A DNA stretch of 64,000 nucleotides from Brachionichthys hirsutus (GCF_040956055.1 NC_090911.1:1460830-1524829); one strand, 5' to 3'. Positions 12,875-37,429 are shown, numbered from the stretch's first letter. Program-made: numbers and translations. The notes: generated by a model not told the origin, from the sequence alone.

Positions 12875-15789
12875 CTGGCAAAGAAGACGGAAACAAGGCC
12901 GCAAGGGCTTTTTTGAAATGCTCCTCTTAGAGAGGATGTTTGACTGTACTTGTACTCTAACATTCTATCTAATAAATATATTAATCATCATCAAAGAGAA
13001 ACATTGTGACTACAATGTGACACAACCGCCACAGCAGATAATTTCAATAGGCCGCAGAATCTGGACTAAAGTGAACGGACCCACGCCAGGCACAAAGTAA
13101 AAACCTGTTTCAGCAGGCTACGTTCACAGTCAATCACAAATATTTTAGAAACTGTTTTCATGTCAAAGGGGAAATGTAAATATTGTTCTAAGTCTGATTT
13201 GAGCTTCCTGTAGAATTATTGAGCGTTAGGAAACAGACAATCGTGAGCTAAATCAATGGTTTGAGGAATAAACCGAAAAAGTCCACCAATAGCTGACATG
13301 AAGATGAAGTGTCCTCTAATGACAAACAAATATAAATCATTGCACTTATTATATGGTAGGTTTAAATAAAATTAGCTAATCGAGTGCCAGCCATTTTCAG
13401 CTCAGCTGTATGCTGAGTAACACAGTTTTCGCGCATTTTTCCCGATTTCCAAGCCCCACAGAATATTCTTTACTATGACTACGCACACACTGAATCTGCC
13501 AAACGAAAGATCAAAGTCTCTTCTTTCATCAGGAAATAAAACTGTTCCTACCATTTCCATTTTCCTTTCCGCAGTTATTGGCTGTTGAAGAAAATCAGAT
13601 TTCAATGTCAGGGTTGGCAGTGAATGTTTGGGTTATTAAAAAAATGTCTTTAGATGTGAACGGCACTCAAAGAGTTAATGCTGCATATTGTAGAGTTATT
13701 AAAAGTGACATCCGGGCTTGTTTTCTGAAAAGGATGTTTTCTAAATCTTCAAATGAGATCATAATCTGATTCTTCCACTCGTGGTGTACTAGAGGGAAAT
13801 ATGGAAACAGTTGTGCCTCCCATTATTCACTGCAGGGGTTTTATTGGTTGCACTAATGAGTCCGCAAATGTCAGTCACCTCATTTAATCTGTACACAAAA
13901 GCACACTACATCATGGTCATTGATTAATCCAAGATTTTGACTCACCTAAAAAAACAAAGAACTAAAAGCAGCACACGAAGCATAATCAATCCCACATCCG
14001 CAGTAATTAGCGCACAGAGAACAGATTAAGGACGTTCACAGTCACGAATAAACGAGGAGAACATGTGGCGGATCAGGGAGTTTAAAGTTGTGAACTGCGA
14101 TGTGAGGACAAACATTAGTTTGGGCTGTTTGACAGGAGGAAAGACAGAATGTTGGTTCAGTTTTGTTTGTAAATGCTACTATAGTTAACAATACTGCAAA
14201 CAATATATATATAAAGCTAATTCTGAATGCAGCTCCGCCCTGACAAACAGGTATCGGAAGCACTGGCGGGATCAAGCCGGAATGGGTGCCATACATAGGG
14301 CGCCACAACCGAGCTCGATCACAGGCTCGGTTCTCGGTCAACACAGCTGGGCTGATGGGTCGGGATGGGGGGGGGCGAGACAGTGGGATCCAGAGGAATG
14401 AGATCCATCAGGCTTGGCTGGGGGAGAGCTCGTCTGCAATAGGAGAGCACTCGGATATCTCCACGCTCACAATGTGCCCGCTTGAACCTTACATTTGTAT
14501 CGCCGTCTGAAAATATATTTAACAAATTGCATTTATCCTCAGGATTCATTTCCAGGAGTTCTTTCATGGCAGATTGTCCCACTCTCCCATCCAATTTCAT
14601 GGTTATCAATCAAGCAGTTTATGTAGTATCAACTTAAATTGAATAAAAACTCATATATATATTTTTATGGTAAAAAAAGAAAAAGAAAACTCCGGACTCC
14701 GTCCCAATACCTGCATTCCCTTCGAAATGTAATGGGTTGTTCTTTTCTTATGCTCAACCCTCCCACCAACAGACGAGCAAAACCAACACTGGTGAAAGCA
14801 TTACTTCATTGATCGAGGTGATAACATGCTCTTAAAATTCATATAACAATAGCAGTCTGACCGAGAGAGTCCATGAAGGGGAGAATAAACTAAAAAAAAT
14901 ATGAAGGAAAGTAAACTTAGACAGCTTATTGTAGTCACTAATGGAAAAATAGAATATCACCAGACTTAGCATTTTAATAAGCATCCAATTGATTTCAGAA
15001 TTAGGTCATGCTTTGTGAACCTTGTTGCAGCCTGAATCTGCCTGATTTATGACTCCACACAGCAAGCTGGTCAATCCGCCCGAACTCACGCCGTTCATGG
15101 GAAAGATTCATTTTCCATTGCTGCTTTGGAATGACTTAATGCACACGTTCCAGCCTTAAAGCTTGGACCTGCTGTTGATTTAATGTTCTGAATACAGACA
15201 AGCCTCCACAGTCATATATTTACAGGCGGGCAGCAGATTAGGTCATTTTAATGAATTAATTCACTTAAGTATGAAGCAAGTCCCTGAGTTCAGATTTCTC
15301 AAATAAACACCGTTTATTTAGAGACAGGTCTCGGGTAATTATGGAGGGGAATTACTCACACTGTTCAAGCAGACACAGGTGATGATCATGTGCTGGGGTT
15401 CAAAGGTCATTGTTGTGAAGGTCAATGAAGGAGTCTGTGTTTCTATAGGCTGAACACGGCCTGAATTCGACTTTAATGAATGTGTACAACTACACAAGTT
15501 CACTTTCTGGAGTGTGCATGAACACTAGTTAAAGGATTTTCATTGAAATTGCCCTTTACTAATCAATGCATCATTATTGAATCATTAGTTATGAAAATGG
15601 GTGCAGGTTTGCCTGTCTTTGTGTATGTGTTTAATTGTTTAAAAAGGATACCCGTTAGTTGCTACCCAAGTAACAAATAGTTACGAGATCATCACTGTCT
15701 AACACACCTTGGGTCAGTGGCCGCTCAGACATTCTGTCAGCAGGTTAGAAATCAATTCAAAACGAGACGTCCCAGTTTTAAGGAAAACT

Positions 15790-16765
15790 GCAGAATGTGG
15801 GTTCTGCAGAACAGCCTCACACTAATGACCTCCAGAATGTGGGTTCTGCAGAACAGCCTCACAGTAATGACCTCCAGAATGTGGGTTCTGCAGAACAGCC
15901 TCACAGTAATGACCTCCAGAATGTGGGTTCTGCAGAACAGCCTCACAGTAACGACCTCCAGAATGTGGGTTCTGCAGAACAGCCTCACACTAATGACCTC
16001 CAGAATGTGGGTTCTGCAGAACAGCCTCACAGTAATGACCTCCAGAATGTGGGTTCTGCAGAACAGCCTCACAGTAACGACCTCCAGAATGTGGGTTCTG
16101 CAGAACAGCCTCACAGTAATGACCTCCAGAATGTGGGTTCTGCAGAACAGCCTCACAGTAATGACCTCCAGAATGTGGGTTCTGCAGAACAGCCTCACAC
16201 TAATGACCTCCAGAATGTGGGTTCTGCAGAACAGCCTCACACTAATGACCTCCAGAATGTGGGTGCTGCAGAACAGCCTCACACTAATGACCTCCAGAAT
16301 GTGGGTTCTGCAGAACAGCCTCACACTTCTCTGCCGGTGCAGCAATGTCTGCTGCTCCATGCTCAGAAGTGACGTCAGAGCTCAGTGCCTCGACGTCAAA
16401 AACAGACAACTCCTCCTTCATCCTCTGGAAAACGTGCGTCGCTCGAAAAAGAAAACATCTCCCCCAGCCTCGCCATTTCTTCTTCTGTTTGCACTCCAGC
16501 TACAAAGAATCGCGTCTCCTTTTCACTCTGGCGTGCTGAGATGACGCTCAAACTACCTGTGGCGGCGGACGTCGATTAGCTGCGTAAAAACGCACGCGAC
16601 TCTCCTCGTTAGCTGCGGCATCCGGTCACCGGTCACTCACTGGCTCACGTTGAAAAGTAGCACAGCATGAATTTTATTTTCAATTCAGGTTGGATTTTGT
16701 TTTTGTGCGCTGCGGAGATTTTCGCATCAACAGTGCACAATTACGCACGTGCGCAGCTTAGAGGG
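15790..16765 (+). repeat. left arm of a large inverted repeat: a 42 bp tandem array (15790-16335, about 13 units of GAATGTGGGTTCTGCAGAACAGCCTCACAGTAATGACCTCCA) plus about 430 bp of unique inner flank
   Basis: The 42 bp periodicity is visible directly. The inner flank 16335-16765 is the reverse complement of 24850-25370. Confidence 0.9.
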
Positions 16766-17214
16766 AACGTTGGTGGCAAGAATTCTCTAAACAGCTTAAA
16801 GCTGGACTCTGAAACACTGGAGAACAAGAGAAAGAGAAAGAGAAAGTTTGATTTTAAAAAGTAATTACACCCCATCACCCCCACCCACCCACAACCCCAC
16901 CCCACTCAATGCATTCCACTTAACACCACGCCACTGAAACGCATGATAGTGCACATTGGACCCTTTTATGATTGTGATTCTTGGTGAGTGAAATGAATGC
17001 ACATTTTACAAGGTATGCTTTTTGTTTTTGTAAATAAAACATCATGGGATTTTTTTGTTCTGTTGGCTGACCTTTTTTGCGACAAGCATCCAAAAAGCGA
17101 TGAGTTACAAATAAAAAATAGTACATTGTTTGTTTGTTTTTCTTCTTTTAAAATGATCAGTTTAAAAATCAGTTTACCGTAATGAACCAGCCAAAAGCAA
17201 AGAAAAGGACTTAC

Positions 17215-18110
17215 GATGCATTTGTTGGGTTTTTCCCCAGAATGGACCCTCATGTGGATGAGCAGCTTGTAGCGCGCGTTGAAGGGTTTGTGGTGTCGCA
17301 CACAGCCGGCCCAGAAGCACGAAAACTCTTCCCCTTTGCGCTGATCGATGTGCACCTTCTCAATGTGCCTCACCAGCGCCTCCTGACTGCTGTAAGTGGC
17401 ACTGCAGTCAATCCAATGACATGGCTGGTCCTGCTGGTCCACTGCAAGGTCCTGTCTTGTGGGTCCATTAAGCTTCTGTAATGTATCTGCGGTACTGTCC
17501 TGACCGTCGTGGCTGTGAGGCAGTAGGCCCACCTGGAACAGTGCCTCCTGCTGGCTGTTCCCTTCATACGGTTCCCTCTTACATGCGGAAAAATCCTCTG
17601 CAGGCTCTTGTTTGATGGAATGATACTTGTCCTTTATTGTTTGTTGATAACTGTTGTTGCCCCCAGGTGCATTAGAAATAGGCAAAGATAAAGATGAGGA
17701 GGAGGAGGAGGAAGAGGAAAGAGAGGATATCGGAGAGCCAAACGGATGAGCTGGAGGGCAACTGCTGAGCATACAGGACAAAGAGAGGCAGGGCTGGGGG
17801 TAACAACTGAACCTCGGGTTGTTGTTTTTAGGATCTGTACACACGGTTGTGGCAAAGTCCTCCACAGCTGCTTCTGTGTGGGGTCCGGCTGTCTTACAGC
17901 TGAGCAGAGAGGTTAGGTCCCGTCCCAGCGACGACAGGGACAGGGAAGTCCATGGCGCACAGCAACCACCCAAACCGCCTGACTGCGTCGACGACTGAGA
18001 AAAACCCTCCGAGGAAAGTGGGGCCTGAAGGTCCTCGGCATCCACAAACAAACTTCCAAAACCTGGAAGAGTCAGCTGAACATCTGGAGGGCCGAGGTCA
18101 GGGGGCCACA
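17215..18110 (-). CDS. glis1: GLIS large 5' coding exon: N-terminal region plus zinc fingers 1-2
   Basis: The exon encodes CHWIDCSATYSSQEALVRHIEKVHIDQRKGEEFSCFWAGCVRHHKPFNARYKLLIHMRVHSGEKPNKCI, closed by the donor TGCATC|gtaagt. The upstream IKQEPAEDFS motif, the CVRxxKPF residues and the FEGC in the next exon favour GLIS1 over GLIS3. That paralogue assignment rests on memory of the family alignment. The candidate ATG at 18108-18110 is assumed; an upstream exon cannot be excluded. Confidence 0.8.
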
Positions 18111-21097
18111 TCTTGGCCCCCAACGATTTCCACTAAGATCTCTGATGATTCTCTTCAAGCAGCTTTAGGAATCCATTGGAGGCAAAGCCACCGATAGGCT
18201 CTTTCAATTCTTAAATCTTCTTAGATTGCTGCCGTCGTCTCATCTCATCCAGAGTCTTCTGTCATTTGTTCCGAACTGCTGCTGGGTCAGTCGTCTGCAT
18301 GCACTGTGGGAGACAGAAGCCAAACCCACATGAGTCATCTTAAAGGACAAAAACCACAAACACAAAGCCCTTTGTGAGCCAACAGCGGTCGAAGTACCCA
18401 GAGAGGGTTACAGGGTAACTAATTATTTTAGTCCAAAAAGTTCTCAATTAGATGTAGAAGCTTTGCGTGTAAACTCCTGCCAGGCCCTATTGAGGATCAC
18501 GAGATGAATAATGAAAGAAAAAGGAAAGAGGAATCACCAAAATCTATATCCAAATTACCTATAATTCCCACAATGCAACTCAATCAACGATACACTGCCT
18601 GGAATTTGTTGGTTACGCTAGTAGCAGCTAATGGGCTCAGATACGCTGTCACTCTGCTAAAATTATTTAACCACAATTAAAATCCAACCAACAACGACTC
18701 AAGTGACATCACATGTGGTAATTGATTCATCTTCTGCTCCCAGTGTTGCAAACAAAGATAGTAAAGAACTAAATTAAACTTTGTTTGCACAGTACGCATG
18801 CGTATACTTGATGTGTAAAATCGTAATTCAGATCAATTGAATCAAAATCAAAGCAATATAGAAAGTACATAGTCCCACATATGTGCCATGTAGCTTTTAT
18901 GCACCGATTTCAGCTGCGCTCATGCAGGCCTTGATCTACTGCACTGCTGTGAATCAGTGGCTCGGCTGGCGTCACAACGTGCCATGGCGTTGAAAGAGCC
19001 GAAACATGAAACCAAAAATGAGTCATATTCTGTTATTTCATCATTTAGTTCAGTCATTAAGCAGCAGAGAGGGTCCCAAATGGAATGAAATAGCATGTCC
19101 GAGCGCCTCGTCCGCAGGCTCCAATCAAACACATGGAAGTGTGACGCTCTGTATATTTAGTCTCCTTTGAGGCGCTGTAGGAGTCAGGGCTGATTCATGA
19201 CTGCGGGCATTAAGGCCACCCTTGCAGCAAATAGCAGCCGTTGTGTGGCCGCCGATTGCCTGGAACCTGGTCCAGATGCTTGTTAACAGAAGAGTAATGG
19301 ACCACATCGGACTGTTAGCTAATGACGCCGCATAGAGGCTGGAAAAGAGGGGATCACCCTGAGGTTCCACCTCCCTGTCACATGCGCAGTAGTTCTACGG
19401 TGATACGGCACTTCAGCGTTTATTGGAGTTGATTTCCCTGTCTTCTGCCATTTAAGAGATATTGATGACCTAATTCACAACAGGATCCCTGTCAGGCGTT
19501 AATAGCCATCGACAGATTCAAAGGGATTTCATGCAGATGGTTCTTTCACGAGCCAGCTGAGAGGATGAGTAAGTTCTCCTCTGCGGTTTATATTAGCCGA
19601 TGATGGAGTTACTAAGTGTGGGTCCTTGCCCCACAGTTTCCTGGTACAGTCGGGTTTACAGCTTTATAATTATTCCTGTAAAGGGCAGGAGTTGCCACCG
19701 TGGAGTCACATAGGAGAGCAGTCATGGGAGGCGTGGCTGGTTCTTAATTAGAGTTGGACAGGATTAATGATACGTGCACAGCAGAAGTCATCAATCAAGG
19801 CGTTTGAAATATAATTGTTACCCAGTACAAAGGTAACAACCGTTACATTTAAGATTCAAATGTAAAATGAGAAGGAGAAAAAACCTCAAAGGATATTACT
19901 GATACGTCATCTTTATTAGTCATTAAAGTCCAGCATCAACTGAGAAACAACGAGGGTGCAGACGGGGGGTTTCTTGCCCCTGAATGTTCAGGAGCCATTT
20001 CTTGGCCCAGATCCAGAAAGAAGAATCCTAAATTAAAACCAAGAAAAGCGTCTCGCATAACCACAACCGAGCATGCAAACAATAAAACAGCAGGCACGTC
20101 TCATGCGGTGGCTTTTAAAGCCCCACATGTTAAGCTGAGCTAAACACAGCTGTGGCATTTCATGACAAACAAACAAGAACTCATTTCACAATAAGCCCTT
20201 TTTTGCAAATGGTTCGGGGCTTTTACGTTCCACTGAAACATGCTGAAGCCCTTCTTTAGATTGTTTAGTCAAAAAAAATGAAAGGAAGCTTAGAAACATT
20301 TATGAGGCATGAGGGTTTTTTTATGTTGTTTTAAATTAAAGGTTGTTATTTTTTTATATACTGCGCAAACATAATCGATAAGACTTTTTTTTAAAGATCT
20401 TTAATTGTCGGTGGTGGTATAGCATATTCAGTACAGAACCATATGGAATTAGCATCATGTATATCCAAGTACATTTGAGAACACTGCCTTTATTTCATTT
20501 CTGTGTAAATCATATCAGATTCTATGACTTAGCGAAGGATAATAAGAGCTGCAGATCTTAGTTCTTGGATTGGATCAGAATACTTTTGTGCAAAGAAGTA
20601 CCCATATGTGTAGTATATTTTAATGGAATATGTTTGTAGGAGAACAAAATGTCTTAAAGGTGGTTGGCTGACCACTTTCCCACATGTCTCAGGTGTTGTT
20701 GTGAAAGACGTGAGAGACCAATAAGGCTATAAAGGAGAATTCTGAGCGGAGGTGGAAAGTTTTCACTTTGATTTGCACCTCGGGGTCCCCATTTTCAAAA
20801 GCAGCAACCAGCATTTAATTGTGAACAAAAAGCACCTCAAAGTTGTACAAAGAACGGAGAAGACAAACAGGTCAGCCGCCTCACCAAACCAGGGATGTGG
20901 CTCCGATGAGTGACAGCAGACTGGCTAACATCCTCCTGTTACAGGTGTGAGCACAGCAACAATAAGGACCCGCCTGCTCTGCCTGCAGACTCCTGATAGA
21001 CATAACCCATGAGATACAGGGTTAACCCTCACCCTTCCTCCCACCTCCAAAAACATGCAAATGATCTGAATTGGTTACACTAAGTTGTCCATACGTG

Positions 21098-21245
21098 TGA
21101 GTATGTGTGTGTGTGTGTGTGTTTGTGTGTGTGTGAATGATTGTGTGGCCCTGGCAGCTTGTCCAGGGTGTCCCCCGCCTTTCGCCCATTGACTGCTGAG
21201 ATCGGCACCGGGTCGCGGGCCAAGCTCGAGCCTGACAAAGCGGTC
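21098..21245. repeat. (TG)n microsatellite plus SINE-tail fragment (tgtgtggccctggcagcttgtccagggtgtcccccgcc...)
   Basis: It is similar to the 3' tail of the SINE at 58780-58870 and to 33155-33260. Confidence 0.6.
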
Positions 21246-24200
21246 AAAAATAAATGAATGAAATATTCTGTTAAATGTAATTAAAGGCTGAAGCTTTCTA
21301 AACAATAGTCGGTGTTTGGTTGCATTTCCCCCCCGGAGGAAAAGCAAATTATAGTCTTAATTTTGCTGTTTTTGTTGCATCAATAGGTGTAGCCTAAATG
21401 AAAGACATATTGGCTATTTAAATATTGGCATATCTAAATTTTAAAAGCCAAACCTCCAGATACAAATCCTGCCAATGGTGTGAGCTCACGTATAAATTTT
21501 GAGCCAAACGTAAATCCAGGTGACAAAACCACAGCTGGCTGCAAGAGCTGCTTGAAAAAGACGAGAGGAATGCAAACCACCGCCAGACCCCAACAGGAGG
21601 AGGCGATCGCTCCTCCATCCCTGGTATACCAACGCTCCCGCTGGAAGAGGAGATGCAGAGGACGAAGGCCGTTTGAATGTGCTCCAAAGAATTCTATCCA
21701 CACATGAAAAATAAAAACACTCAGTTAGATGCACCCTCTTGATAACTGTGAGCCACATGAAACGCGCACTGTTTCTGTGGAATGTCCTCACTTAATGTGA
21801 TGGATGTGATCATTCGTATCCATAACACTGCAGGCTTCTTTGTTGTTGCCAGAAAAGATTATTTGGCTCCTTGCACATTTTTAAAGGCAGTTTGGGTCAG
21901 AGGAAACTCAGTGGGAAACTGCGAATAACCGAGTCTCATGTTGCACAGCATAACGACGCGTTATTGGATCAGGAATCGGGCATATCATCTCAGAAAGCGG
22001 TCCGCATTGCTGCTAACTTTAGACACTCCCATAGCTCCCTCCTACAGTACTTCCAATAAATCATCGAGAAATGTCAAATTTACTATATCGCCAAACTAAC
22101 TGCAGCTTTTGTTTCTCATTGTATATTTTTACAGGTCGGATCATTTTTCTTCATTTATCCATCAATTTTCTTGTAGATGAGACAATCTAATTGTCGTAAG
22201 ATGAAACAATTGTCTCATCGACAGCTGCTTTTCCACTTTACGGGTCACGGGAGTTGCTATCCCAGCTTGCCATGAGCAAGAGGTGGGGTACACCCCGGAC
22301 GCATCGCCAGCACATCATAGTTCATTTATATTATTTATAGTTAATATAATAATTCATGTTGCTAATTAGGCTGAAATAAAAACAAACAGTCTTAAACTGC
22401 GATATACTGCCACAGTGAAATGCTTCATATACATACATTTAATCATCAGAAATAATAATAATCCAACCATTGTTGGATTTATCTCAGACAAACAAATGCC
22501 GGCGATGACAGAACCCCCACCTCGGGGGTAATAAAAACATCTCAGCGCCACCACGGCTACATTAACAACCCAGCTGGGCTGTCAGCATCACTATCGGAGT
22601 TTGAGATGTCATCATTCTGCCTTACATTTGCTTTCTTCAACCTAAGTTGCATTTCCTTTACACATAAAGCGTGTTTACGGTGTGGATGCCTTCCTCTTCT
22701 TCCATCAGTGCTCACCTATCCCTCCATCCTCCTCTCCTGGCAAAGCATTTACAAGCAGGTGTGGATCTGTGAGAAACTGTGAGAGCACAGATGGCAGGAA
22801 ATTCCAGTGAAATGACAGTAGCTCAGACTAAACCACAAGACAGCCTCAGCAGAGCCGGAGAGCAGGCCCAGCAGGCCCAGCAGCAGCGCCGATGGACTCC
22901 ACTGAGAGGAGCCGGCTCTCCAGCGCCTTGAAATAGGATCAGCTTCTTAGGGCGTCTGCTAAAACTCTTCTATGATGGAGCGAGACTGGTTTGGTGGGCA
23001 CAGACTGGCTCCAATGTGTCGTTCCAAACAGAGTTTTGGGTGCTATTTGCTCTCAGAAACGTAGTGAAAATAGATACAGCCCATGTCTGGTTAAACATGA
23101 GGAATGCTGCCAAAATTATCACGCAGGTCAATATCAGGCAACACTTTCCAGGTTCTCGCCCAGCAGCTCAAATGGGAAACTGAGAAATAGTGCAATGAAA
23201 CAACACAAATATCGAACTGGAGAGGGCCCTTTAAAAGCCTGGAATTAAACAGTTGAAGAAAGTTTCAAGCAAACATCAATTTTATGGCAAAAGCAGCAGC
23301 CAATAAAGAACACTCTTACAGTTTGGTCTCGCGACTAGCGCTGATGGCGAGGTCTTCCGGTAAATCTTGAGCCAATCATGTCAACGAAAATGATTCCAAT
23401 CAATCAAACCATCAAAACAGAAAGAAGAGAGGAGTGAGACGAATCAACCAGAGGTAAAGCAAGTGTAAAGGTCAAACACTGTCCCCCGTCGCACCTTTAC
23501 ACAGGAGTGAGTCTGATTTCATTTGATAGAAATGTCCTGCCCCTGTGTAAATTTACATCACAAAACACAGGATGAGATGAGCAGCTCTGATGAAGCACGT
23601 TCCTCAAAGCTTGGTGTCTTTCCATCGTTGTCTCTGGGGACACTAAAGAGATCTTTAAAAACTGTGACTGAAATTTAATAAACTGTCAAATACTGAACAG
23701 AACCTGTTTTTCCACTCACTACAAGAGCTACAGACACACGTGTTTGCTTGTAGAGGTAATTTATTAGTGACAAAGAGACAATGGCTGAATTAAAGGTGGG
23801 GGGGGGGGGGAATGTGAGACTGCATTTGAAGCCCAGATTGTTTGGCAGATAAAAATAGCTTTCTGGCCGAAGGGGAGTGGAAGTTTTGGAGTCGTGTTGC
23901 GAAGGCATTTGGGAATGAAACCAGATAAGGAAAATGGCTTATTAAAAGGGATAAAAAATGAATTTATACTGTAAACATACACTTATAACCAAGGTTGTAA
24001 CTATTACTTCCGGAATAACCATTACTGAAAATGTATATTTTATTCATTGCAAACATTTCTCCCTCCATTTGCAGCGGGGCTTCTGAATCCTTACAAACAC
24101 CTTCTTTTGTGTGTGATAACATTTCCAAACGTAAACCTGCTTTGCTCCGGAAGCGGATGAATCGAGGACAGCCGAGTGAAACCAGGGCTTCGATCTTCCT

Positions 24201-24849
24201 TACAGATCCTTTTCATTTCCCTGCCTCTATGTTGTTGTTTTTTTTTGTGACCCTTCTAAGAAACAACTCCCTTCATGTTGTCTATGGACCAACACCAACT
24301 ACTGTAAAAACAGTGGACTTTGTTGCTCCTGGCTCTGTTAGACATTAATAGGACATAATACTTTTCTCCTGTTGCCGATTATATTCACCAATATACAGTA
24401 TATGCTGGAATGTTTTTTCATTGTCAATGCTTTGATTTAATCAAAGCTCATGCTGAAGAACTCACGGTAACCAAAGGTGGAAGGGTGATGTTTTTACGAA
24501 GGCCTTGTCTCATCTCCAAAAAACAACATATAAAGTAGAATTAGGCTGTGAAACTTTTAAAGCCATGTAGGGACACATCCCTGCTGCGTTAATCTACATT
24601 ACGACCATTTTAATATTCAATGGAATGAAAATATGTTGAACGCACAGAATAAATCCTGTAGTACCTGTCTGAGTAGTTGAGTTCATTATTACTTTCATTT
24701 GCAGCTAACAAATATAACAAGTTTGTTTTTTTTCCACTCACCGAGCCAGGCAGCCAGAGACATTTAGCAGCTCGATCAGGGGTCACAAACTCAGATTACC
24801 TGGGGGGGCCACAGGAGGCAGAGTCCGGGTGAGGTCGGGCAGCATCAGG

Positions 24850-26435
24850 TATTCCACCGAACCACGTTCCCTCTAAGCTGCGTGCGTGCGCAATTGCGCA
24901 CTGCTGATGCGGTCTTCGCGCAGCGAAAACCTCCGCTGCGCGCAAAAACAAAATCCAACCTGAATTGAAAATAAAAGAAAAAAGTTAAAATTCATGCTGT
25001 GCTACTTTTCAATGTGAGCCAGTGAGTGACCGGTGACCGGCTGCCGCAGCTAACGAGGAGAGACGCGTGCGTTTTTACGCAGCTAATCGACGTCCGCCGC
25101 CACAGGTGTTTGAGCGAACAACGCGGCGTGGCCGATGTGGAGGGAAGACGCTTAATAATAAAGACAAGGCGAACGGGCGGTGACGTCATCTCAGCACGCC
25201 AGAGTGAAAAGGAGACGCGATTCTTTGTAGCTGGAGCGCAAACAGAAGAAACGGAGAGACTGGGGGAGATGCTTTCCAGAGGATGAAGGAGGAGTTGTCT
25301 GTTTTTGACGTCGAGGCACTGAGCTCTGACGTCACTTCTGAGTATGGAGCAGCAGACATTGCTGCACCGGCAGATAAGTGTGAGGCTGTTCTGCAGAACC
25401 CACATTCTGGAGGTCATTACTGTGAGGCTGTTCTGCAGAACCCACATTCTGGAGGTCATTACTGTGAGGCTGTTCTGCAGAACCCACATTCTGGAGGTCA
25501 TTAGTGTGAGGCTGTTCTGCAGAACCCACATTCTGGAGGTCATTACTGTGAGGCTGTTCTGCAGAACCCACATTCTGGAGGTCATTAGTGTGAGGCTGTT
25601 CTGCAGAACCCACATTCTGGAGGTCATTACTGTGAGGCTGTTCTGCAGAACCCACATTCTGGAGGTCATTACTGTGAGGCTGTTCTGCAGAACCCACATT
25701 CTGGAGGTCATTACTGTGAGGCTGTTCTGCAGAACCCACATTCTGGAGGTCATTACTGTGAGGCTGTTCTGCAGAACCCACATTCTGGAGGTCATTAAAG
25801 TGTGAGGCTGTTCTGCAGAACCCACATTCTGGAGGTCATTACTGTGAGGCTGTTCTGTAGAACCCACATTCTGGAGGTCATTAAAGTGTGAGGCTGTTCT
25901 GCAGAACCCACATTCTGGAGGTCATTAAAGTGAGGCTGTTCTGCAGAACCCACATTCTGGAGGTCATTACTGTGAGGCTGTTCTGCAGAACCCACATTCT
26001 GGAGGTCATTACTGTGAGGCTGTTCTGCAGAACCCACATTCTGGAGGTCATTACTGTGAGGCTGTTCTGCAGAACCCACATTCTGGAGGTCATTACTGTG
26101 AGGCTGTTCTGCAGAACCCACATTCTGGAGGTCATTACTGTGAGGCTGTTCTGCAGAACCCACATTCTGGAGGTCATTAAAGTGTGAGGCTGTTCTGCAG
26201 AACCCACATTCTGGAGGTCATTACTGTGAGGCTGTTCTGTAGAACCCACATTCTGGAGGTCATTAAAGTGTGAGGCTGTTCTGCAGAACCCACATTCTGG
26301 AGGTCATTACTGTGAGGCTGTTCTGCAGAACACACATTCTGGAGGTCATTACTGTGAGGCTGTTCTGTAGAACCCACATTCTGGAGGTCATTACTGTGAG
26401 GCTGTTCTGCAGAACCCACATTCTGCTGGTCATTA
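24850..26435 (-). repeat. right arm of the inverted repeat: unique inner flank (24850-25370) plus about 25 units of the same 42 bp tandem repeat in reverse-complement orientation (25370-26435)
   Basis: The repeat is the reverse complement of the left-arm unit (ctgttctgcagaacccacattctggaggtcattactgtgagg). Some units are 45 bp variants with an aaagtg insertion. Confidence 0.9.
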
Positions 26436-27839
26436 ATAGTGAATGTGTTGAATTCAAGTCCATAATGAGGCTAGAACTTAAACGTGGGTCAATCAGCACC
26501 TTCTCAGACGTGGTTCTGCAGCACTAAAATCTAGGAGCTCAAACATCTCAGCTGTTTGTGCTGCATCTCAAGCATCCAGAGCAGAATGTGAAAGAGAACT
26601 TAGTTTAGTGAAGCGTATTAAAGTAGCACCCAGAAATGGTCTGGAAGTGTTTGGACCAGTCGATGCATAAAGTCAAAGCTGCAGGCAGACGAGGACGTCA
26701 ACCTGGACAACGTGTCCAACCGTTGGAGACGTGAGAAGTACACAGGACACATGAGGTTATATACTGTATTCTGGAGACGAGGAGTTCCACATGAATGGAT
26801 GAATGGATGAATGAATGAATTTTGTTTTCGAACATGTATAAAAATATGTAAGTATTTGTACATACAAAAGAAAGAAATACTAATAAAAAACAAAAGACAT
26901 AACAAAACGCAGAACATTGTTCAAAAAATGAGTAGGAAGAAGTGGAATACTTATTTAAAAAAATGTCTACCCTATTATTCAGTTTATAGCAAAATATTCA
27001 ACATAAATACTTGCATTAATAAACCAAAAAATACTATTATATATAAATCACCCATCATCCACAGTTAACACCTTTCCTCTTCTGTATACTTGTTTAGAAA
27101 AACAAATGTTGTACCTCCTTTGCTTGTTAATTTTATGTTTTATTTGTTGATTTATCTCTTGTTTTTATGTTTTTTTTATACTCTTGTGCACTTTGAGGTT
27201 TGCTTTCAAATATAAAGTGCGTTCAACATAAAATGTATTATTATGACGTTGCTCACATTTGTCCGAGGGTCTGCTCAGGGAGTTTGTGTGTTTGCTCAGA
27301 CACACGAAAAATTAGAGGGAACACACCAAACATTGTTTGTTAAAATCAGACCATTTCAACTGATGGAAAAACACAATAAAATCTGTATGATCCCGAATCC
27401 AACACGGGTAATATTGATTTCATCCAACTCTAAAGTCAAACATACTTTTTTCAAACACAGCAATAAGAAGTGATGGCTATGAGATGTTGTGAAATGTTTC
27501 TCTGCTTGCGCAAGATAAAAGGAATCTTCCACACACAAGTAGGTAAGTGGCTTTGAGAACACTTTAAATTCTAACCTCTTTTCAGCATTTTTTACAATCG
27601 AAAACTCAAAAGACATTCTTAAGATAGCATTAATTGAATAAAAAAATAAATATAAAATTCACGGGCCTCAATCACATAAAATTTCGTTCTGCGGGCCACA
27701 AATTATCATCCAAAGGGCCGCAAGTGGCCCGCGGGCCATGAGTTTGGGGCCCCTGAGCATTAAAAACTAGGGCAGCGCTAAAAGGAGAGTGAAAATTATG
27801 GCGTGTCCAGGTCTCTAATGGAAACATGACTCAAAGCCA

Positions 27840-28170
27840 ATGTCAGAGTTTTCTGTCTGTTTGTCTGTCCGAGCGCATAAGTCAAAAACTAGTAACCCAA
27901 TCGACTTGAAAATTTTACACAAGCAAGGTTCTGTCCGTGGCTCGGTCCTCCCCGAGAATGGCGTTGATCCGGATCTGGATCCAGATTCTAGAATTATTTT
28001 TACATCTGGAATTGTACCTGTGCTGTAAACTGCCACTTTAAGAGGGAGGGACACGAATGGCATGATGGGAAAAAGAGTCCAGAAGGAGTCTTGTAGTACG
28101 TTCCGGAGCAGCAAGCTAGAGCAGGTTTGGCCCCTCTGATCCGGAAGCCCTGTTTACTGTCTCACAAGTT
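27840..28170 (+). repeat. copy 1 of a two-copy dispersed repeat of about 330 bp
   Basis: Positions 27850-27960 match 29205-29320 (…cgcataa[gc]tcaaaaactagtaacccaatcgacttgaaa.ttttacacaagcaaggttctgtccgtggctc…). Positions 28100-28170 match 29385-29455. Confidence 0.75.
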
Positions 28171-29149
28171 CAAATAGTCTTTTGGAGGCGGGGTCTGCAA
28201 TCTCTGATTGTCGTTTTCTAGTTTCTATTATATTATAACCCCCAGAAATAATCTGACATTTAGAATCATCCTGTAAAAATCCTCTGCGTATTAACTGGAT
28301 ATACTCTTGCAAAAAAAAGGTTACAAACATATTATCCACCTGTGTCACCCCTGAGTGTGCAAAAAAGCCCCCCTCTGGCTTGGAATAATATATCCAAACA
28401 GGATTGCACAGGATTGTTACCCTCGCCGAAGCCTCGAGTGAATATGTCATGAGGTTTTGGCAGAACCCCCCCCCCCCAAAAAAACATGGAGTTTATTTTA
28501 AGTTGTGAATTTAAAGCCGTCTGCTCTGAGCTAATCCGAAAGAAAAACGAAACAAGACTACCGGTATATACAAATATAGATCATGTGATGATGTGCAATG
28601 GCTTGTTTAACTGTGGTATTAAGTTTCAAGATATATCTCATTATTTCTCTTTTGTTGCTTGTTTGAATGTCTTGAGTTATTACCACATCAAACTGTGGGA
28701 GACTGTCATTGTTTGAGGGGATTTATATTTTAAACTAATTCAGCACAAATCCAGTCCTGTTATTTCCTTTGGTTCAGGGTTGTTGTTGTTGTTGTTTTTA
28801 TCTCTACAAGAATATGTGCGTCACAACAGAAAACCCAAACTTTTTTTTTGCAATCATCTGATGATGTGAATTTATATAAGACAACGCTGTCTGATATGTG
28901 TGTCACAAAAGCTGCATTTTATGGTCTCAGTTATCGAATTTGGTTTGTAAAAAAAATACATAAAAACACACAAAAAGAGCAGTTAATAAAGAAATAAATC
29001 TTTGTTTCTTTCACGGTCGATCCATAATTTCCCGTTTATCTTTGTCTCCATAATAATAAAATGTGAAAGCCACCCTCTGCTCAGCTCTCCTTGCTTTTTG
29101 TGTCTTCCGGAACAACTCCCCTCGGAGGCAGCTCAGATTTTCTCTTGTT

Positions 29150-29460
29150 ACCCTCGCCGAAGGGGAGGCGAGGGTATTGCAATTGGGTCCGTTTGTCTGT
29201 CTGTTTGTTTGTCTGTCTGTTTGTCTGTCCGCGCGCATAACTCAAAAACTAGTAACCCAATCGACTTGAAATTTTTACACAAGCAAGGTTCTGTCCGTGG
29301 CTCTGTCCTCCCCGGGAATGGGGGAGGAATTCTAGTTTCATATATGTTACAGTTCAACAGTTGTAGTTGTATCTTTTCCTGTTCCGGAGCAGCAAGCTAG
29401 CGCAGGTTTGGCCCCTCTGATCCGGAAGCCCTGTTTACTGTCTCACAAGATGGAATAGTC
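29150..29460 (+). repeat. copy 2 of the same dispersed repeat
   Basis: It aligns with 27840-28170. Related fragments appear at 46960-47060 and 49050-49110. Confidence 0.75.
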
Positions 29461-32400
29461 TATTGGAGGCGAGGGTCTGCAGTCTCTGATTGTCTTTTTC
29501 TAGTTAATGTTTGTGAAAGGTATGTTTTTAGACATGCTAACACTCTGTGACTCTGCACACTTAAATGCATCAAGTCATCTTAAATCCCGAATATAAACAT
29601 GAGCAATAAAGTATGTATTTAAGATATAACTTCTACGATGCACCAGAACAGCAGTATTAAATTGTGTTCATCAAAAGTTTATTTGATGCAGAGAAAAGTG
29701 CATGAAACAGATGACTGTTAGTTACAAATCCCCAAAAAAAACACTTAATGGAAGAGGCAATACACTAAAACCTTTAAAAACAAATTAATGACAAAATCAT
29801 GTGAAATTTAGGTCAGATTACAACTTTAATTCCACATGAACATTTTTGATTTTGTGATGAAAGCAAGGTAAAAAGCCTCATTTTGAGATTATCTCTTTCA
29901 AACTAATATATCCTAAGTCTCGGAACATCCATAAAATGTCGAGCCAACCCAAAAGTCGACTTTTATCCTCTTTTTCCAAACATTTGAACTTGCAGTAATG
30001 TTTTCAGCAGATTCAACAGCTGTGTCAAAATGAACAAATGTGTTTCGATCAAAATATAAAAGACTATATGAGTTATAACCTCTATAGAAACACAGTGTTA
30101 CCATGTGAATGCTTAAGTTACATCAACAATATGAGCATCTGGTGAAATAATCGCTGATTCACTGGTAATGATGATCAACAACCTGATCGACCTTCCAAAG
30201 ACCTATTAAGATAATTCTGCATGAAAGAGCACAAGTCTTGTTTGAGATGCCCTTAAAAGTCACATTTATTGGAATAAATGCTGTAATCAGTGATCAGATG
30301 AACTGTGAGTCAACATTTTTTACAATGAGAACACCAGCTGAGACCGAGTATGAAGCACGATTCCCCAGCTCAGGCTCCATGACAGTAATGATTAAAACAA
30401 GCTCCCCATCTCCTCACAAAGCCACATTTCCACCCCCTGTGCAGCACTTTTCATTCCAGCCACATTACATAAATCAGCGGAATGCTGAAGTGGAAACGAA
30501 GAGGGGGGAAACATCACAGGAATCATGTGGCGAAGCGTTCACTAAAGCAGCATATCTATTAATTGGCTCCCTCAAATCGGTGTTGTGCAATCAACACAAA
30601 TGACGTTGTAACATTATTACTATGATTAAGTTGAGCTTTCAAGTTGTAACTTTAGCTTGAATTTTTGGTTTTAATGATGACTTGTCAGCCATTCAGAATA
30701 ACTATAATACATACTTTATGGTGCACACAACTTCATTCCGTGAGTTTATTGGATGCTAACTTAGACCTGGTGTTTTCACTGTTAACAACCACAGATTAGG
30801 ATATCACATATTTTTAACTAGAATAGCACTCACAGAGCTCAGACGTCCTCCATGCACCTCAGTTACCCTCCGTAAATAATAGTCAAACATTTATTGTAGT
30901 ATCTATGGTTTTAGATTACTTGACCATGAAAGCATACCTTTAGTGATTGAATTCAATTTGATATCTTTATTAGTTCAGTAGTTATTCACAAAAATCACTT
31001 ATTTGGTACATGCCAGTTTTCGTTTGGATCTAGCACCAAATGAGTCTGTTCGCACACTTCTGATTCCTCAGTGTTTTAGATATATTTTGGTGTTTATTTC
31101 ATGTCTATGTCTTATTTTGTTCCCTTGCAGTGATGAAAATTCCAAAGATCCATTATTTTTTTCTTGATCTGGATCATAGCACCTGGAATTATGCCAGGAG
31201 CCAGATCAATCTTTGATATCCTGTAGAGATCCTCTTGGGAATTTATCCTGTATTGTGTGTTGAAAATATTCTGTCAATGATAAAGAATCATTGAAACAAT
31301 TTCTGGAGCTGGACGGTGATCCAGATTGCCTCTAAAATCTCTCTGTCACTCTTTTCCTGTACCTGTCCTTGTCTTTGTCTTTCTACCGCTGTCTTTCTCT
31401 CTCTCTCTCCATCTCAACTCAGCCGGTCAGACAGATGGCCGCCCACCATGAGCCTAGGACCCTAGGTTCTGTCCAAGGTTTCTGCCTGATAAAAGGGAGT
31501 GTTTTCTTGCCTCCGTTACCAAAGTGTTTGCTCTTGTGTGTCAAGTTGGGTTCTGTCTTTCCCTGCTAATCCTGTAAAGTGCCTTAACTTTCTGCTATGC
31601 TCTAGCACTATAGAAATAAAACGGAATTGAAAATTGAATTGAATTAATCGCTTGTTCTGAGGCGAAAAATCCCAAAGATTTCATCAAAAACCCTCCACAA
31701 TTTTTGAGTTATGTTGCTAACAAACAACCAGATAAATAGTGACAAAAACACAACCTCCTTGGTAGAGGTAACAAAAAAAAATTCATTATAAATATGCAGT
31801 ATAATGGATGGTGAGCTTTAATTTACTGTTGACATGATCCCAACCAATGCAAACGTTTTAGGCATAAAGATTCTATACTATAGTATACTTTTTTCCAAAG
31901 AAATGTTCAAATCTCTTCAAATCTCCACTTCTTGTATTAAAATGTCGGGTTCTATAAACATGCAAATACTTCTTTCCATTTCAAAAGTTTAACAGCTGGA
32001 CACAATATGTTTTCTACATCACATCCATTGAGTTTGTTGGAGGTTTCAGGTTTCCACATCAACTTGTGCAACATTCACGATTTGCCCCCAAACGTCACGT
32101 TCCAAAAACCGTGCTTGTGTGATCAAATTAGCTTGAAGAAGAGAGCAGAGAAACTATTTCCTCTCCAGCAGATGGAGATGAAAACAGTGTCAAATCATAA
32201 ATATTGACGGGAGAGCACACAAGTTAAGCAGCAAGACATAAGACGTTTGTGGTTAGTTGGATGTTTTTGATGTTGTATCTCTTTTGCTATCACAATAGGG
32301 ACTTTTGCATAATTTCATTACAGTTTACTACACACTATTGTGATATTTGAACGGGTATTACTATAGCAATATATATATATACATATATTGTATTTTCTGT

Positions 32401-34545: not shown

Positions 34546-36280
34546 TATTTTGGTCCGAGATATTTTTCTTTTTTCCTTCCTTTTTGTTTTGGGACATTTT
34601 CCGACGATGCTTTTTGTTTTGTTTTTTATTTTGCCAGTGGACAGAGCATAATATACGCCAGCCAGCGTCATAGCTAGCTTGGCTAATTTCGGGACGCGCA
34701 CTCCACGAAAACATAGCGGTGGTCGTGCTTTTAAAAATGCGCCTTGGATTATTTTTAGCTCCAGTTTCATACATTTTTGAGGTTCTGTGGTTTTGTTTTT
34801 TGCAGCATGTAAGACTTCGTTGATGGGACTGCTGTGTCTTTGCACGCTCTCATCCAGCTCCCAGCTAGGTTAGCGCTAGCTAAGAATATGAGTGTCTCTT
34901 GGTTTCATAGCCGTGGCCTGATCCTTATCCGTTATCGATCTCGTATTCTCCACTACAAATTCAAGACCTGTCTGCAGGTTTTCCAAGCAGATGAGCTGAG
35001 TTTACTGCATTGTATTTTTGTTCTTTTAATTTCGTGGTTGGCTAACGTCGGCCATGCTAGCCGATGCTAGCACAGGGCCTGTGTTTTACACGAAAGCCTG
35101 ATGGTGGCGCTGTCGACCTTCCATGCTGGTGTGTTGTCCATGTTTTAGGTAATTTTATATACCGGTAATCGCGATATTTTGCTTTTCTCATGCAGCCAAA
35201 GCTGTATTTAGTTTAGTTTTTTGTTGGGTATATTTCTCATGATGAATAATTGTTTTTCCTGATTTTGGAAGCTCTGGATTGCCTTCAGTTTTTTATTGTA
35301 TATTTTCACGTTATAATAATCAAGCGGGTATCAAAGAATATTGTTTTTTCAGGTGCATCTAAATCAACTTTGTCTCTAAACCCGCATAGATTCAAGACAC
35401 AATCATAAATATCCATTCCAGTCTTCATTGCTAAATGCTATTATTGCAATTGCCATAATAAAAACCCTGTCTGCATATTTTCTGACAGTATAGAAGCTCG
35501 GCTCTAGTATTATAATTATTGGATTAGCAACAGAACTTTGTAGTGAATCCCAACATGGTTATAGCCTGAAATAAATTGGACTGAGTGGCAGAACTTTATG
35601 AACCGTTTCCAAAGAAACATCAAACAAGTCATTGCAGATTGTGGTACGAGTGTCATCAATACCGCAACATAAAGTAAAGATTTAATTAAATCTCATCAGA
35701 GCATATGGTCGTTCAACTTGATCCTCTGCTGGGATCAATCCTAAATGGCTTGAACTACGAGGTTACACTGAGAGTACTGTTTATCCGACCTACACATCAC
35801 CGATACGAGACGTGCGTCTCTATGGTGCGTTCAAGTGAGCAGGATAAGCAAACCATGGAGGACCACAATGCAGAGTCTGTTCAATGGGGGGGGGGGGGCA
35901 GCTCTATTCAGAACGAGGGGCCTTTTCGGAACCGGGCGGTGTTTGAAACCTTTTTAATCTTCTTTAAAATACGGCACTCTTGGCGTTCACGCAGGAGATC
36001 ACATACGAGTCACGTCACGAACTCGCAAAAAAAAAAAACGGATTTCACAAGAAACTCCAAATTGAGCATTAAGCCCTGCAGTGTGAACTCGGCCTTAGAG
36101 TCCACCTAATGCACCTCTTTGTCCACCTTCCACGTTGTTTCACCCCCAAGTGGCTAGTATTATTAGATTAATTGTTTTAAATCTTGGAGGCGCATGCTTT
36201 TTCGTGTCGCTGTGTCTTTTCACTGACCCGTGTCCTACAGCCAGCTCAGTTTGACTGAGGTGTGTTTTCTGTCCCCACAG

Positions 36281-36366
36281 TATAAATCGTGAGGAGAGAA
36301 GGTGAAGGTCCAGACACTAGCCCACCGTGTCAGACGACACCCCAGCCAGCACACAGACGCTATGGA
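36281..36366 (+). promoter_or_regulatory. TATA box (tataaatc, 36281-36288) and non-coding exon 1 of the hnRNP C-like gene, ending at donor 36367 gtgagt
   Basis: The TATAAAT sits about 25-30 bp upstream of a plausible transcription start. A GTGAGT donor follows. The ATG lies in the next exon, which has a good acceptor (cccgatag|). Confidence 0.5.
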
Positions 36367-36498
36367 GTGAGTGAATGTTTGACCCCGTTTTCCGGGGCGA
36401 GTTCCTCTTCGTGTCGTTGCTTTAGTGCTGCTGGCGCCGTCCACTTTGGCGGAATCCCTAAATCACGGAATGACACCAGAAAAGACGAGTGAATTTGA

Positions 36499-36879
<381 letters not shown>

Positions 36880-36946
36880 TAAAGCAAGTTTTTGGCCTGT
36901 AGTTTGCCCAATCTACTTCAAGATACCAATGTCAAACTGGGCGGGG

Positions 36947-37396: not shown

Positions 37397-37429
37397 ACAT
37401 ACCTAAAACATGAATTTCTGGTAAATGGT

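Follow-up and report, generated by a model that had tools for sequence, protein, structure and literature searches.

Two inverted copies of a minisatellite-bearing non-coding repeat bracket the 5′ end of glis1a in Brachionichthys hirsutus

Introduction

In FB-type elements, a unique flanking domain lies outermost, tandem repeats follow inside it, and an inner and a middle domain come next; insertion leaves target-site duplications (TSDs) of 8-10 bp (PMC4079207). Tandem arrays are also common inside Helitron and Helentron elements, MITEs, and foldback elements, according to reviews (PMC12628747). In inverted repeats, lengthening the spacer from 12 to 100 bp lowers cruciform-dependent instability ~300-fold (PMC10164571).

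Here we analyse a stretch of 64,000 nucleotides from Brachionichthys hirsutus, referred to as the window, in which a first-pass annotation had described a foldback-like inverted repeat around a GLIS zinc-finger exon. We find that two diverged copies of one 1–1.6 kb non-coding repeat, in opposite orientation, bracket the 5′ end of the fish glis1a gene. The inverted pair is real, and the question is how it arose.

Results

Geometry of the inverted pair

Repeat detection in the window returned inverted matches of up to 530 nt at 98% identity, and self-BLAST paired 15791-16550 with 25917-25181, 16545-16725 with 25116-24923, and 16723-16774 with 24911-24861, all inverted. This self-comparison shows that the inverted homology runs on past the arrays and through the non-tandem tails. 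The first-pass description of two inverted arms ~8.1 kb apart, each with an array outside and unique sequence inside, thus holds, with coordinates accurate to within ~10 bp: arm L spans 15788-16774 (987 bp), arm R lies inverted at 24861-26442, and the spacer between them is 8,086 bp (Table 1). The other 54 kb of the window contain no third copy of the arm. On the outer side, beyond the arrays, the two arms have no sequence in common and the arrays abut unrelated host DNA.

Identity is 94-98% over the inverted arms and 94% between the tails, which have a K2P of 0.059 and five indels. In all, the arms differ by 24 substitutions and five indels (122 bp), and their arrays are distinct both in length and in variants.

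Table 1. Coordinates of the arms and of the enclosed glis1a features within the window.
Feature	Position	Strand	Evidence
Arm L 42-bp minisatellite, 12 full units plus a junction unit (12.7)	15788..16325	+	TRF and unit listing
Arm L non-tandem CpG-rich tail, 449 bp	16326..16774	+	Alignment A1, divergence and CpG counts
First coding exon of glis1a	17215..18303	-	ORF list, Pfam, homologues, sequence
Conserved non-coding blocks upstream of coding exon	19088..20242	.	BLAST anchor maps
Putative conserved non-coding exon (5′UTR) of glis1a	22716..23056	-	Alignment A2 and sequence
Arm R non-tandem CpG-rich tail, 518 bp	24861..25378	-	Alignment, divergence and CpG counts
Subterminal secondary-structure motifs, arm R	24886..24942	-	Repeat search and DNA fold
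Arm R 42-bp minisatellite, 25 units	25379..26442	-	TRF, unit listing, variant counts

The tails share a sharp, structured terminus

The homology between the arms stops sharply at the same base, ...CAGCTTAGAGGGAACGT (short form ...AGAGGGAACGT), and in both arms this terminus faces the exon. The base that follows is T in arm L but G in arm R (ACGT/TGG versus ACGT/GGT, the slash marking the boundary). The window contains just two exact occurrences of the 18-nt terminus, GCAGCTTAGAGGGAACGT, where 0.05 would be expected. Close to it, arm R carries a perfect 16-nt palindrome, GTGCGCAATTGCGCAC, at 24886-24901, which is 25 nt from the boundary at 24861, or 22 nt if counted from 24864, where the exact shared 18-mer ends; its arm L counterpart is decayed. 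A hairpin with a 9-bp stem, CGCGCAGCG-N8-CGCTGCGCG, lies at 24917-24942, 56-81 nt from the terminus, and a 9-mer, TTAGCTGCG/CGCAGCTAA, recurs in arm R, with a near-copy at the very terminus. When folded as DNA, the terminal 146 nt of arm R are more stable than expected (z = -2.64; 1 of 200 shuffles was equally stable), and the decayed counterpart in arm L gives z = -0.65.

The tails have decayed to different extents. Arm L has lost more CpGs and has suffered deletions of 68, 14 and 14 bp; the tail of arm R is more intact and contains two TGACGTCA sites; and each arm has its own microhomology-flanked deletions. Both tails remain CpG-rich, with observed/expected ratios of 1.04 in the arm L tail and 0.98 across 24651-25400, an interval that contains the arm R tail and carries the CpG-rich sequence ~200 bp beyond its terminus, compared with 0.63 for the whole window. 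Despite a K2P of 0.059, 27 of 33 CpG positions are still common to both tails, and CpG decay in each is ~2x background. This high retention fits young insertions whose differences are partly older than the insertions themselves.

Homology searches with the arm ORFs identified no protein relatives of the tails, an Rfam search of the arms returned no family, and Pfam gave nothing meaningful, its ACT_6 match being below the cut-off and repeat-driven. Several familiar origins were considered and rejected: a SINE or tRNA origin, given the lack of an Rfam match and of an A-rich tail; LTR-like direct repeats, given that the arms are inverted; and piggyBac, for which a GGG terminus is present but TTAA is not.

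The arrays are still turning over

TRF places the arm L array at 15791-16325 (12.7 copies, 97% matches) and the arm R array at 25379-26435 (25.0 copies, 95% matches), the latter with an additional 382-bp period. The 42-bp unit of arm L is CAGAATGTGGGTTCTGCAGAACAGCCTCACAGTAATGACCTC, which contains the palindrome GTTCTGCAGAAC; the array it forms is nearly CpG-free (2 observed, 34 expected). In arm R, nine units make up a 382-bp higher-order repeat, present in 2.8 copies and built with 44-bp CACTTTAATG units and TCTACAG variants, and the outermost unit of the array is degenerate. The unequal copy number that the first-pass annotation had put at about 13 versus 25 is therefore 12.7 versus 25 units. 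Its suggestion of ongoing array dynamics is also upheld: each array has private unit variants, arm R has duplicated a nine-unit (382-bp) block, and private variants are far fewer than the divergence of the tails would predict. The length of the arrays continues to change through unequal exchange and block duplication.

The arms enclose ancestral glis1a sequence

The ORF between the arms (16966..18123, minus strand) is a GLIS zinc-finger exon (Pfam PF23561, E 1.6e-18) whose best named homologues are ‘GLIS family zinc finger 1a’, confirming that the arms enclose a GLIS 5′ coding exon together with ~6.75 kb of upstream sequence. The glis1a coding sequence starts with the ATG at 18111-18109, the splice donor directly follows 17215, and a putative splice acceptor, ...ttctgtctcccacag, is predicted from the sequence at about 18304. 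This exon lies in the loop, 441 bp from the terminus of arm L, so arm L sits in the intron just downstream of the first coding exon. Further upstream, the segment that we take as a putative non-coding 5′UTR exon ends in a donor, GGGATAG/GTGAGC, that is invariant in three species and directly after which conservation collapses; CCAAT- and ETS-like motifs are found just upstream of it, at ~23.30-23.40 kb. Arm R sits ~1.8 kb upstream of this exon. Elsewhere in the window, there is a CpG-rich cluster at 35.7-42.9 kb in which an upstream start could lie.

Both the loop and the left flank run colinearly, and in matching orientation, with the glis1a locus in six to seven other fishes (Pleuronectes, Lates, Lampris and several Logan fishes, whose contigs behind the long ‘proteins’ are genomic and not spliced transcripts). 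Exons and blocks within the loop keep their order and orientation relative to exons 3 onward, which lie outside the arm. Upstream of the coding exon, the conserved non-coding blocks recur in Pleuronectes, Lates, Lampris and the Logan fishes, which identifies the loop as ancestral host DNA.

Arm sequence is absent from all of these orthologous loci, which total ~117 kb and include six that span the position of arm L in the intron. From the end of the exon to the next anchor, the distance is 608 bp in one Logan contig (L005), 909 bp in Pleuronectes, 2,120 bp in Lates, and ~1,920-1,950 bp here; because the Lates interval is so long, interval length is a weak argument for insertion of arm L. The closest relatives are 70-79% identical in the exon, and since the intron around the arm L junction is not alignable at base resolution, no empty site is seen at that level. 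The ortholog sequences (Pleuronectes, Lates, Lampris and Logan contigs) reach window position 22.9-23.1 kb at most and stop short of arm R, because the ortholog upstream regions are ~2x as long.

Discussion

Origin of the arms

We favour, with moderate confidence, the interpretation that the arms are two separate truncated copies of a young, non-coding, lineage-specific, array-bearing putative dispersed element with a hairpin-rich terminus. Such an element would consist of a 42-bp internal minisatellite, followed by a CpG-rich, hairpin-rich terminal region of 450-520 bp and then the end; the side beyond the array would be missing in both copies, and their opposite orientation with facing termini would be a chance arrangement. 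The data establish two copies that share a sharp terminus and have decayed independently, around loop DNA that is ancestral and unrearranged. We infer that the element is or was mobile. The last ~80 nt before the shared end hold the 16-nt palindrome, the 9-bp-stem hairpin and the recurring 9-mer, and an end so rich in palindromes and hairpins is typical of transposons, comparable to the 3′ palindromes of Helitrons and Helentrons (PMC4067079). There is also a precedent within the window: at 54512-55007 lies a copy of a demonstrably dispersed element that has the same layout of array and unique tail, with an array amplified from the element’s internal 32 bp and with the far side missing.

Counting against a dispersed element is the number of known copies, which is two, both at the glis1a locus. 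Unless the family is abundant or prone to local hops, it would be a coincidence for two of its members to lie 8 kb apart in a 64-kb stretch that has no others. Neither arm has a TSD, a second terminus or a terminal inverted repeat: the 18-nt end occurs once per arm and is not found on the array side at up to 3 mismatches. The 42-bp unit and a conserved tail segment had 0 exact-pattern matches in metagenome, prokaryote-genome and viral contigs; the arm ORFs and a three-frame array chimera used as protein queries had no matches; a search of 1.84 billion representatives returned only unrelated periodic proteins; and arm sequence strings were not found in the literature. As the searched collections do not include this fish’s genome as DNA, these results say nothing about copy number there.

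The main rival is local, and we consider it a serious but distinctly less probable account: template switching or synthesis-dependent repair would have copied one ancestral array-plus-flank a single time, inverted, into a break ~8 kb distant. The original might be the CpG-island-like sequence of arm R, upstream of the glis1a promoter, with copying that began inside the array and stopped at an arbitrary point now resembling a terminus. This would explain why there are exactly two copies in 64 kb, both local, and none in the 117 kb of ortholog loci, why there are no TSDs and nothing common beyond the array on the outer side, and why no relatives of the arm sequence turned up in the collections searched. 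It also fits the asymmetry between the arms, as the more intact arm R, with more CpGs and with CpG-richness continuing past the terminus, and the more decayed arm L are what would be expected of an unmethylated original and a methylated intronic copy. However, an arbitrary end is not expected to fall at a cluster of palindromes, hairpins and repeated 9-mers, and CpG decay of only ~2x background is hard to square with an intronic copy that has diverged by ~6% in situ within a methylated vertebrate genome. Moreover, 1-kb inverted duplications at a distance of 8 kb are far rarer than dispersed repeats, and the ortholog sequence, ending short of arm R, lends no support to that arm being ancestral.

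It is improbable that the pair is a lineage-specific regulatory or structural device acting on glis1a. In one form of this idea, both arms would be co-transcribed from a far-upstream start and would pair in the pre-mRNA (about 1 kb at 94-98% identity), giving back-splicing, as in Sry-like circularization, or dsRNA editing of the 5′ exons; in another, the CRE-bearing tails would be convergent promoters over the first coding exon, or parts of an invertible promoter–exon cassette. Flanking inverted repeats do promote exon circularization, two exons with canonical splice sites lie between the arms, the CpG-island-like tails with TGACGTCA sites are both aimed at the exon, and the CpG-rich cluster farther upstream offers a possible start. 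Against this, the non-coding exon and the promoter-like motifs at ~23.0-23.4 kb put the likely start downstream of arm R, which would leave that arm outside the transcript. In addition, none of the other fishes examined has the arms, which means that such a role, if any, is not a conserved one. Under the dispersed-element interpretation, the inverted pair as such probably has no function.

The foldback reading, in which a single 10.6-kb mobile unit with the arms as its terminal inverted repeats captured the 5′ segment of glis1a and moved it, is effectively refuted. Long inverted arms with tandem subrepeats give the locus a superficial likeness to FB, Tetris and Galileo, but the domain order is reversed relative to FB-type elements (PMC4079207), with the arrays outermost and the unique, sharp terminus inward, and the loop carries glis1a’s own exons and conserved blocks, colinear in six to seven fishes that lack the arms. 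The outer junctions of the 10.6-kb unit have no direct repeat of at least 4 bp (±8 nt), and under three models there is no TSD of at least 5 bp for the whole unit or for either arm alone, a length that random junction pairs reach in 22% of cases. Two further proposals of the first-pass annotation likewise fail: a mobilised host segment does not agree with a loop and left flank that are colinear and co-oriented with orthologous loci, and a fragile cruciform-forming site is implausible with tails that are 6% diverged and a spacer of 8.1 kb. Lastly, although inverted duplications are a known class of assembly artefact, nothing specific points here to a hairpin misjoined or collapsed in assembly, or to a chimeric fold-back read, an origin made very unlikely by the differences between the arms listed above, their separation by 8.1 kb rather than direct abutment, the zero N runs in the window, and the colinearity with orthologs of the DNA between the arms and to the left.

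Implications

If the arms are copies of a dispersed element, this is an ordinary case of a young array-bearing repeat family that landed twice near a gene; it would be useful mainly for repeat annotation of Brachionichthys hirsutus and as a small, clean illustration of how minisatellites turn over within copies of an element. The consequence to be foreseen is a low-level risk that the inverted copies recombine; this would flip the promoter–exon module and inactivate glis1a. If instead a locus-specific inverted duplication brackets the glis1a promoter and first exons, it would be a ready substrate for such an inactivating inversion, and if both arms were transcribed they would be a strong natural driver of exon circularization.

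Comparison with known systems

With FB, Tetris and Galileo the arms have in common their length (~1-1.6 kb here), inverted arrangement, combination of a unique and a variable tandem domain, lack of coding capacity and unequal copy numbers. Those elements have an element-specific middle domain, whereas the middle here is syntenic host gene sequence. Inverted Alu pairs, the inverted repeats of mouse Sry, and substrates of NAHR similarly place inverted homologous segments kilobases apart around exons, an arrangement that in principle permits RNA pairing or recombinational inversion. At this locus no polymorphic inversion was seen, the enclosed segment having its ancestral orientation, and cruciform-type fragility is strongly suppressed at 8.1 kb (PMC10164571). 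MITEs with tandem repeats, such as Xstir and miDNA4 of Xenopus and the pearl-like elements of bivalves, are also short and non-autonomous, with an internal satellite-like unit that expands and contracts and with arrays bordered by element-derived unique sequence (PMC12628747); they differ, as do TIR transposons generally, in having terminal inverted repeats and TSDs, neither of which was found for either arm.

What the arms appear to resemble most closely is a non-autonomous rolling-circle element of the Helitron/Helentron type, or the solo long terminal region of a DNA transposon. A canonical Helitron has 5′ TC and 3′ CTRR ends and inserts between A and T; the arms lack both a CTRR at their boundary and a 5′ end. 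Canonical Helitrons also have a palindrome of 16-20 nt ~11 bp from the 3′ end, compared with 16 nt at about 22-25 nt from the end in arm R, and they leave no TSD, which agrees with the arms but is equally expected of truncated copies or duplications. The TT insertion and boundary T-runs of Helentrons are not seen at the arm junctions (ACGT/TGG and ACGT/GGT), and there is no consistent A-T or T-T target, no subTIR partner in either copy and no known Rep/helicase partner for the arms. The Helentron-associated HINE/DINE-1 elements carry 12-15 bp subterminal inverted repeats near both ends; here there is a hairpin at 56-81 nt and no 5′ end with which it could pair. HINE/DINE-1 elements also contain internal tandem repeats and, at 8-35 bp from their 3′ terminus, a palindrome (PMC4067079); both features are present here. 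Like Helentrons, HINEs/DINE-1 and Helitrons, the arms are non-coding and place a tandem block beside a conserved terminal region, with a further hairpin upstream of the palindrome, and arrays of variable length and orientation beside element ends are described for Helentrons and Helitrons as well (PMC4067079, PMC12628747).

The inverted arm pair and the 5′ end of glis1a

The inverted pair described in the first-pass annotation is real and correctly placed: inverted matches of up to 530 nt at 98% identity were found, and self-BLAST of the window, a check proposed there, extended the inverted homology past the tandem arrays into non-tandem sequence. Each copy (arm L and arm R) comprises a 42-bp minisatellite array and a non-tandem, CpG-rich tail, and a spacer of 8,086 bp separates the two. 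In pairwise alignment (A1), the homology of both arms ends at the identical base, after ...CAGCTTAGAGGGAACGT; the 18-mer at this shared terminus has exactly two occurrences in the window, where 0.05 would be expected. No further arm copies or fragments were found in the 64-kb window, profile search included, and the window contains no runs of N.

Features of the window
Feature	Position	Description	Source
Reverse-transcriptase fragment	504-1517 (minus strand)	PF00078, E 1.7e-15; window start, inside glis1a gene body	
Arm L array	15791-16325	42-bp unit, 12.7 copies	Tandem Repeats Finder
Arm L, refined	15788-16774	array 15788-16325, tail 16326-16774 (449 bp)	
GLIS ORF	16966-18123 (minus strand)	GLIS-type zinc fingers (PF23561, E 1.6e-18)	
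Upstream conserved blocks	19.1-20.2 kb; 22.7-23.1 kb		BLAST anchor maps
Putative exon 1 block	~22716-23056 (minus strand)	conserved in Pleuronectes and Lates	
CCAAT- and ETS-like motifs	23300-23400	just upstream of preceding block	
Arm R, refined	24861-26442	tail 24861-25378 (518 bp), array 25379-26442	
Arm R array	25379-26435	42-bp unit, 25.0 copies, extra 382-bp period	Tandem Repeats Finder
Direct repeat pair	27848-28223; 29207-29505	two blocks, 94-95% identical, ~1.3 kb apart, just past arm R	
CpG-rich segments	35701-42900	o/e 0.74-0.90, at most 1.5 kb each; between glis1a and ApoL-like gene	
Dispersed-repeat copy	45951-46133	related copies 5337-5573, 49978-50230	
22-bp array	46451-46794	15.6 copies, ~320 bp from preceding repeat; may be another repeat-associated minisatellite	
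Apolipoprotein L ORFs	50705-52558; 52787-53461 (minus strand)	PF05461, E 3e-08 and 4e-23; neighbouring gene on the upstream side of glis1a	
32-bp array	54512-55007	12.9 copies; other copies of its element 58568-58754 (minus strand), 1519-1707	
90-bp array	60056-60421	4.1 copies at 99% identity, very young; frames open on both strands	

Among named proteins, the GLIS ORF comes closest to percomorph fish entries titled 'GLIS family zinc finger 1a' (top identity 75–76%). By comparison with orthologs, its start codon lies at 18111–18109 and a splice donor directly follows 17215. A good splice acceptor (ttctgtctcccacag/) lies ~190 nt 5′ of the ATG, and thus the coding exon is probably preceded by another exon. 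The conserved block upstream ends in a donor, GGGATAG/GTGAGC, that does not vary between this fish, Pleuronectes and Lates; past it, conservation collapses. Judged by these signals, the block is probably a non-coding exon 1 of glis1a, accompanied by its promoter. The intron that follows the coding exon contains arm L, 441 bp from that exon, and arm R is placed ~1.8 kb upstream of the block. If exon 1 is read in this way, the arms would flank the first coding exon of glis1a together with the non-coding exon and its promoter. The CpG-rich cluster further upstream could be an alternative promoter or another unannotated feature.

Comparison with other glis1a loci

We mapped BLAST anchors against the glis1a loci of Pleuronectes platessa (L002), a Logan fish (L003), Lampris (L004), three Logan fishes (L005–L007) and Lates japonicus (L008), and against L001. 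All are colinear and co-oriented with the window through the downstream exons (window 1.9–12.9 kb), the intron, the coding exon and the upstream blocks. The interior has thus kept its place and orientation with respect to its left flank, which leaves the earlier suggestion of a mobilised host segment unsupported. As the first-pass annotation had advised, we also looked for the arms in these loci: no arm sequence was found in the 117 kb compared, nhmmer included, on contigs that all stop short of arm R's position. Exon and anchor are 608 bp apart in L005, 909 bp in Pleuronectes and ~1,920–1,950 bp in the window, a surplus close to the 987 bp of arm L; in Lates the interval is 2,120 bp.

Two further differences were seen. 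Lates carries a second, partial first coding exon (L008 13234–13872, 76% identical to window 17208–17861) ~2.3 kb further downstream than the complete exon (9693–10894); either the exon has been duplicated locally in tandem or the Lates genome has an assembly issue here. A block, GATGATCAAACGGTTTCC...CAGGTTTCCCTTACTCATGCAT, in the orthologous intron 3′ of the coding exon of Pleuronectes (L002, ~11.0–11.3 kb) and two Logan fishes (L001, L003) was not found in the window; either its loss is lineage-specific or the block is a repeat of those species.

Array turnover and tail decay

The 42-bp unit carries a 12-bp palindrome, GTTCTGCAGAAC, and essentially no CpG. The consensus unit and its two commonest variants (CAGT, CACT) are common to both arrays. 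Variants private to arm L are AACGACC and GGGTGCTG; those private to arm R are TCTACAG, a 44-bp CACTTTAATG unit and two singletons, and a 9-unit (382-bp) block present in 2.8 copies makes up most of arm R's surplus length. Because these 2 and 4 private types fall far below the ~15 and ~30 independent substitutions that static arrays would have gained since the divergence of the tails, and because units differ as much within arms (1.0–1.4 edits) as between them (1.27), the ongoing array dynamics proposed earlier are supported.

The tails are ~51–53% GC, with a CpG observed/expected ratio of ~1.0 versus 0.63 in the window, and are the highest-CpG spots near the glis1a exon. They are 94.3% identical (K2P 0.059; 17 transitions, 7 transversions), with 27 CpG positions common to both and 6 not. 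Five indel events span 122 columns, read from the alignment as deletions of 68, 14 and 14 bp in arm L and of 23 and 3 bp in arm R, each flanked by a short direct repeat at its junctions. Arm R, the less decayed copy, bears a perfect 16-nt palindrome (GTGCGCAATTGCGCAC) ~22–25 nt from its end, a 9-bp-stem hairpin 56–81 nt from it, two copies of the 9-mer TTAGCTGCG with an inverted near-copy at the extreme terminus, as well as two TGACGTCA sites. Of 200 shuffles of its last 146 nt, 199 fold less well than the real sequence; in arm L, CpG decay and a deletion have removed this structure. Near the termini, CACGTGCG (16748–16751) stands opposite CACGCACG (24883–24886; A1 columns 566–567), a 4-nt GTGC/GCAC reverse-complement flip within a palindromic context that is suggestive of hairpin-mediated template switching. 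Neither arm has recognisable coding content.

Origin of the arm pair

We lean towards a dispersed element, young, lineage-specific and non-coding, of which each arm is a partial copy: the terminus common to both is sharp and bears palindromes as well as repeated motifs, each copy has decayed independently of the other, the arms are absent from all orthologs compared, and the window holds a precedent. Such an element would run from an internal minisatellite through a hairpin-rich, CpG-rich terminal region to the end. CpG decay in the tails, ~2x the background rate, is limited and suggests recent insertion, with divergence partly inherited from source copies. The precedent is the 32-bp array, amplified from ~32 internal bp of a dispersed SINE/LINE-tail-like element (core ...GAGAACATGCAAACTCCTCACA..., also in Lampris L004 at 11204–11362 and 23267–23382); like the glis1a arms, it consists of an array and a unique tail, with the other side missing.

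A single local inverted, templated duplication of the array and its flank is the main rival. It would account for the two-copy count, the missing target-site duplications (TSDs), the lack of common sequence outside the arrays and the stronger decay of arm L, and the CpG-rich sequence that extends ~200 bp past arm R's 'terminus' would suit an ancestral CpG island. It is a live alternative but less likely than the most probable explanation, which is an ordinary one: an unclassified repeat with arrays, present here in two copies. That the pair has a role at glis1a, at the transcript level or through recombination, is highly improbable. Rare recombination between the arms may occur and would flip the promoter–exon module of glis1a.

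The foldback transposon first proposed fares worse. Foldback elements have a unique flanking domain outermost, internal tandem repeats and bounding TSDs of 8–10 bp (Tetris, PMC4079207), whereas here the arrays lie outermost against unrelated host DNA and the sharp termini face each other. No direct repeat of at least 5 bp, as random junction pairs give in 22% of cases, was found within ±8 nt of the junctions of the 10.6-kb unit, arm L alone or arm R alone. The reversed domain order, the missing TSD and the colinear interior all argue against this assignment. A fragile cruciform site, also suggested, is not credible across 8.1 kb: lengthening the spacer from 12 to 100 bp cuts cruciform-dependent fragility ~300-fold, and for repeats that lie far apart, appreciable interaction is confined to long single-stranded DNA (PMC10164571). 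It is very unlikely that the pair is a fold-back artefact of assembly, as its two members carry distinct substitutions, indels and array variants, are of unequal length and enclose 8 kb of syntenic DNA in a window without gaps.

Among known systems, membership of the Helentron/Helitron group is not established for our candidate dispersed element: the arms have neither a CTRR end nor a T-run, their target dinucleotides do not agree, and both copies lack the opposite end. Non-autonomous elements of this type are nevertheless the nearest structural match, which the arms resemble in their internal tandem repeats, the palindrome ~22–25 nt from the terminus and the lack of a TSD (PMC4067079, PMC12628747).
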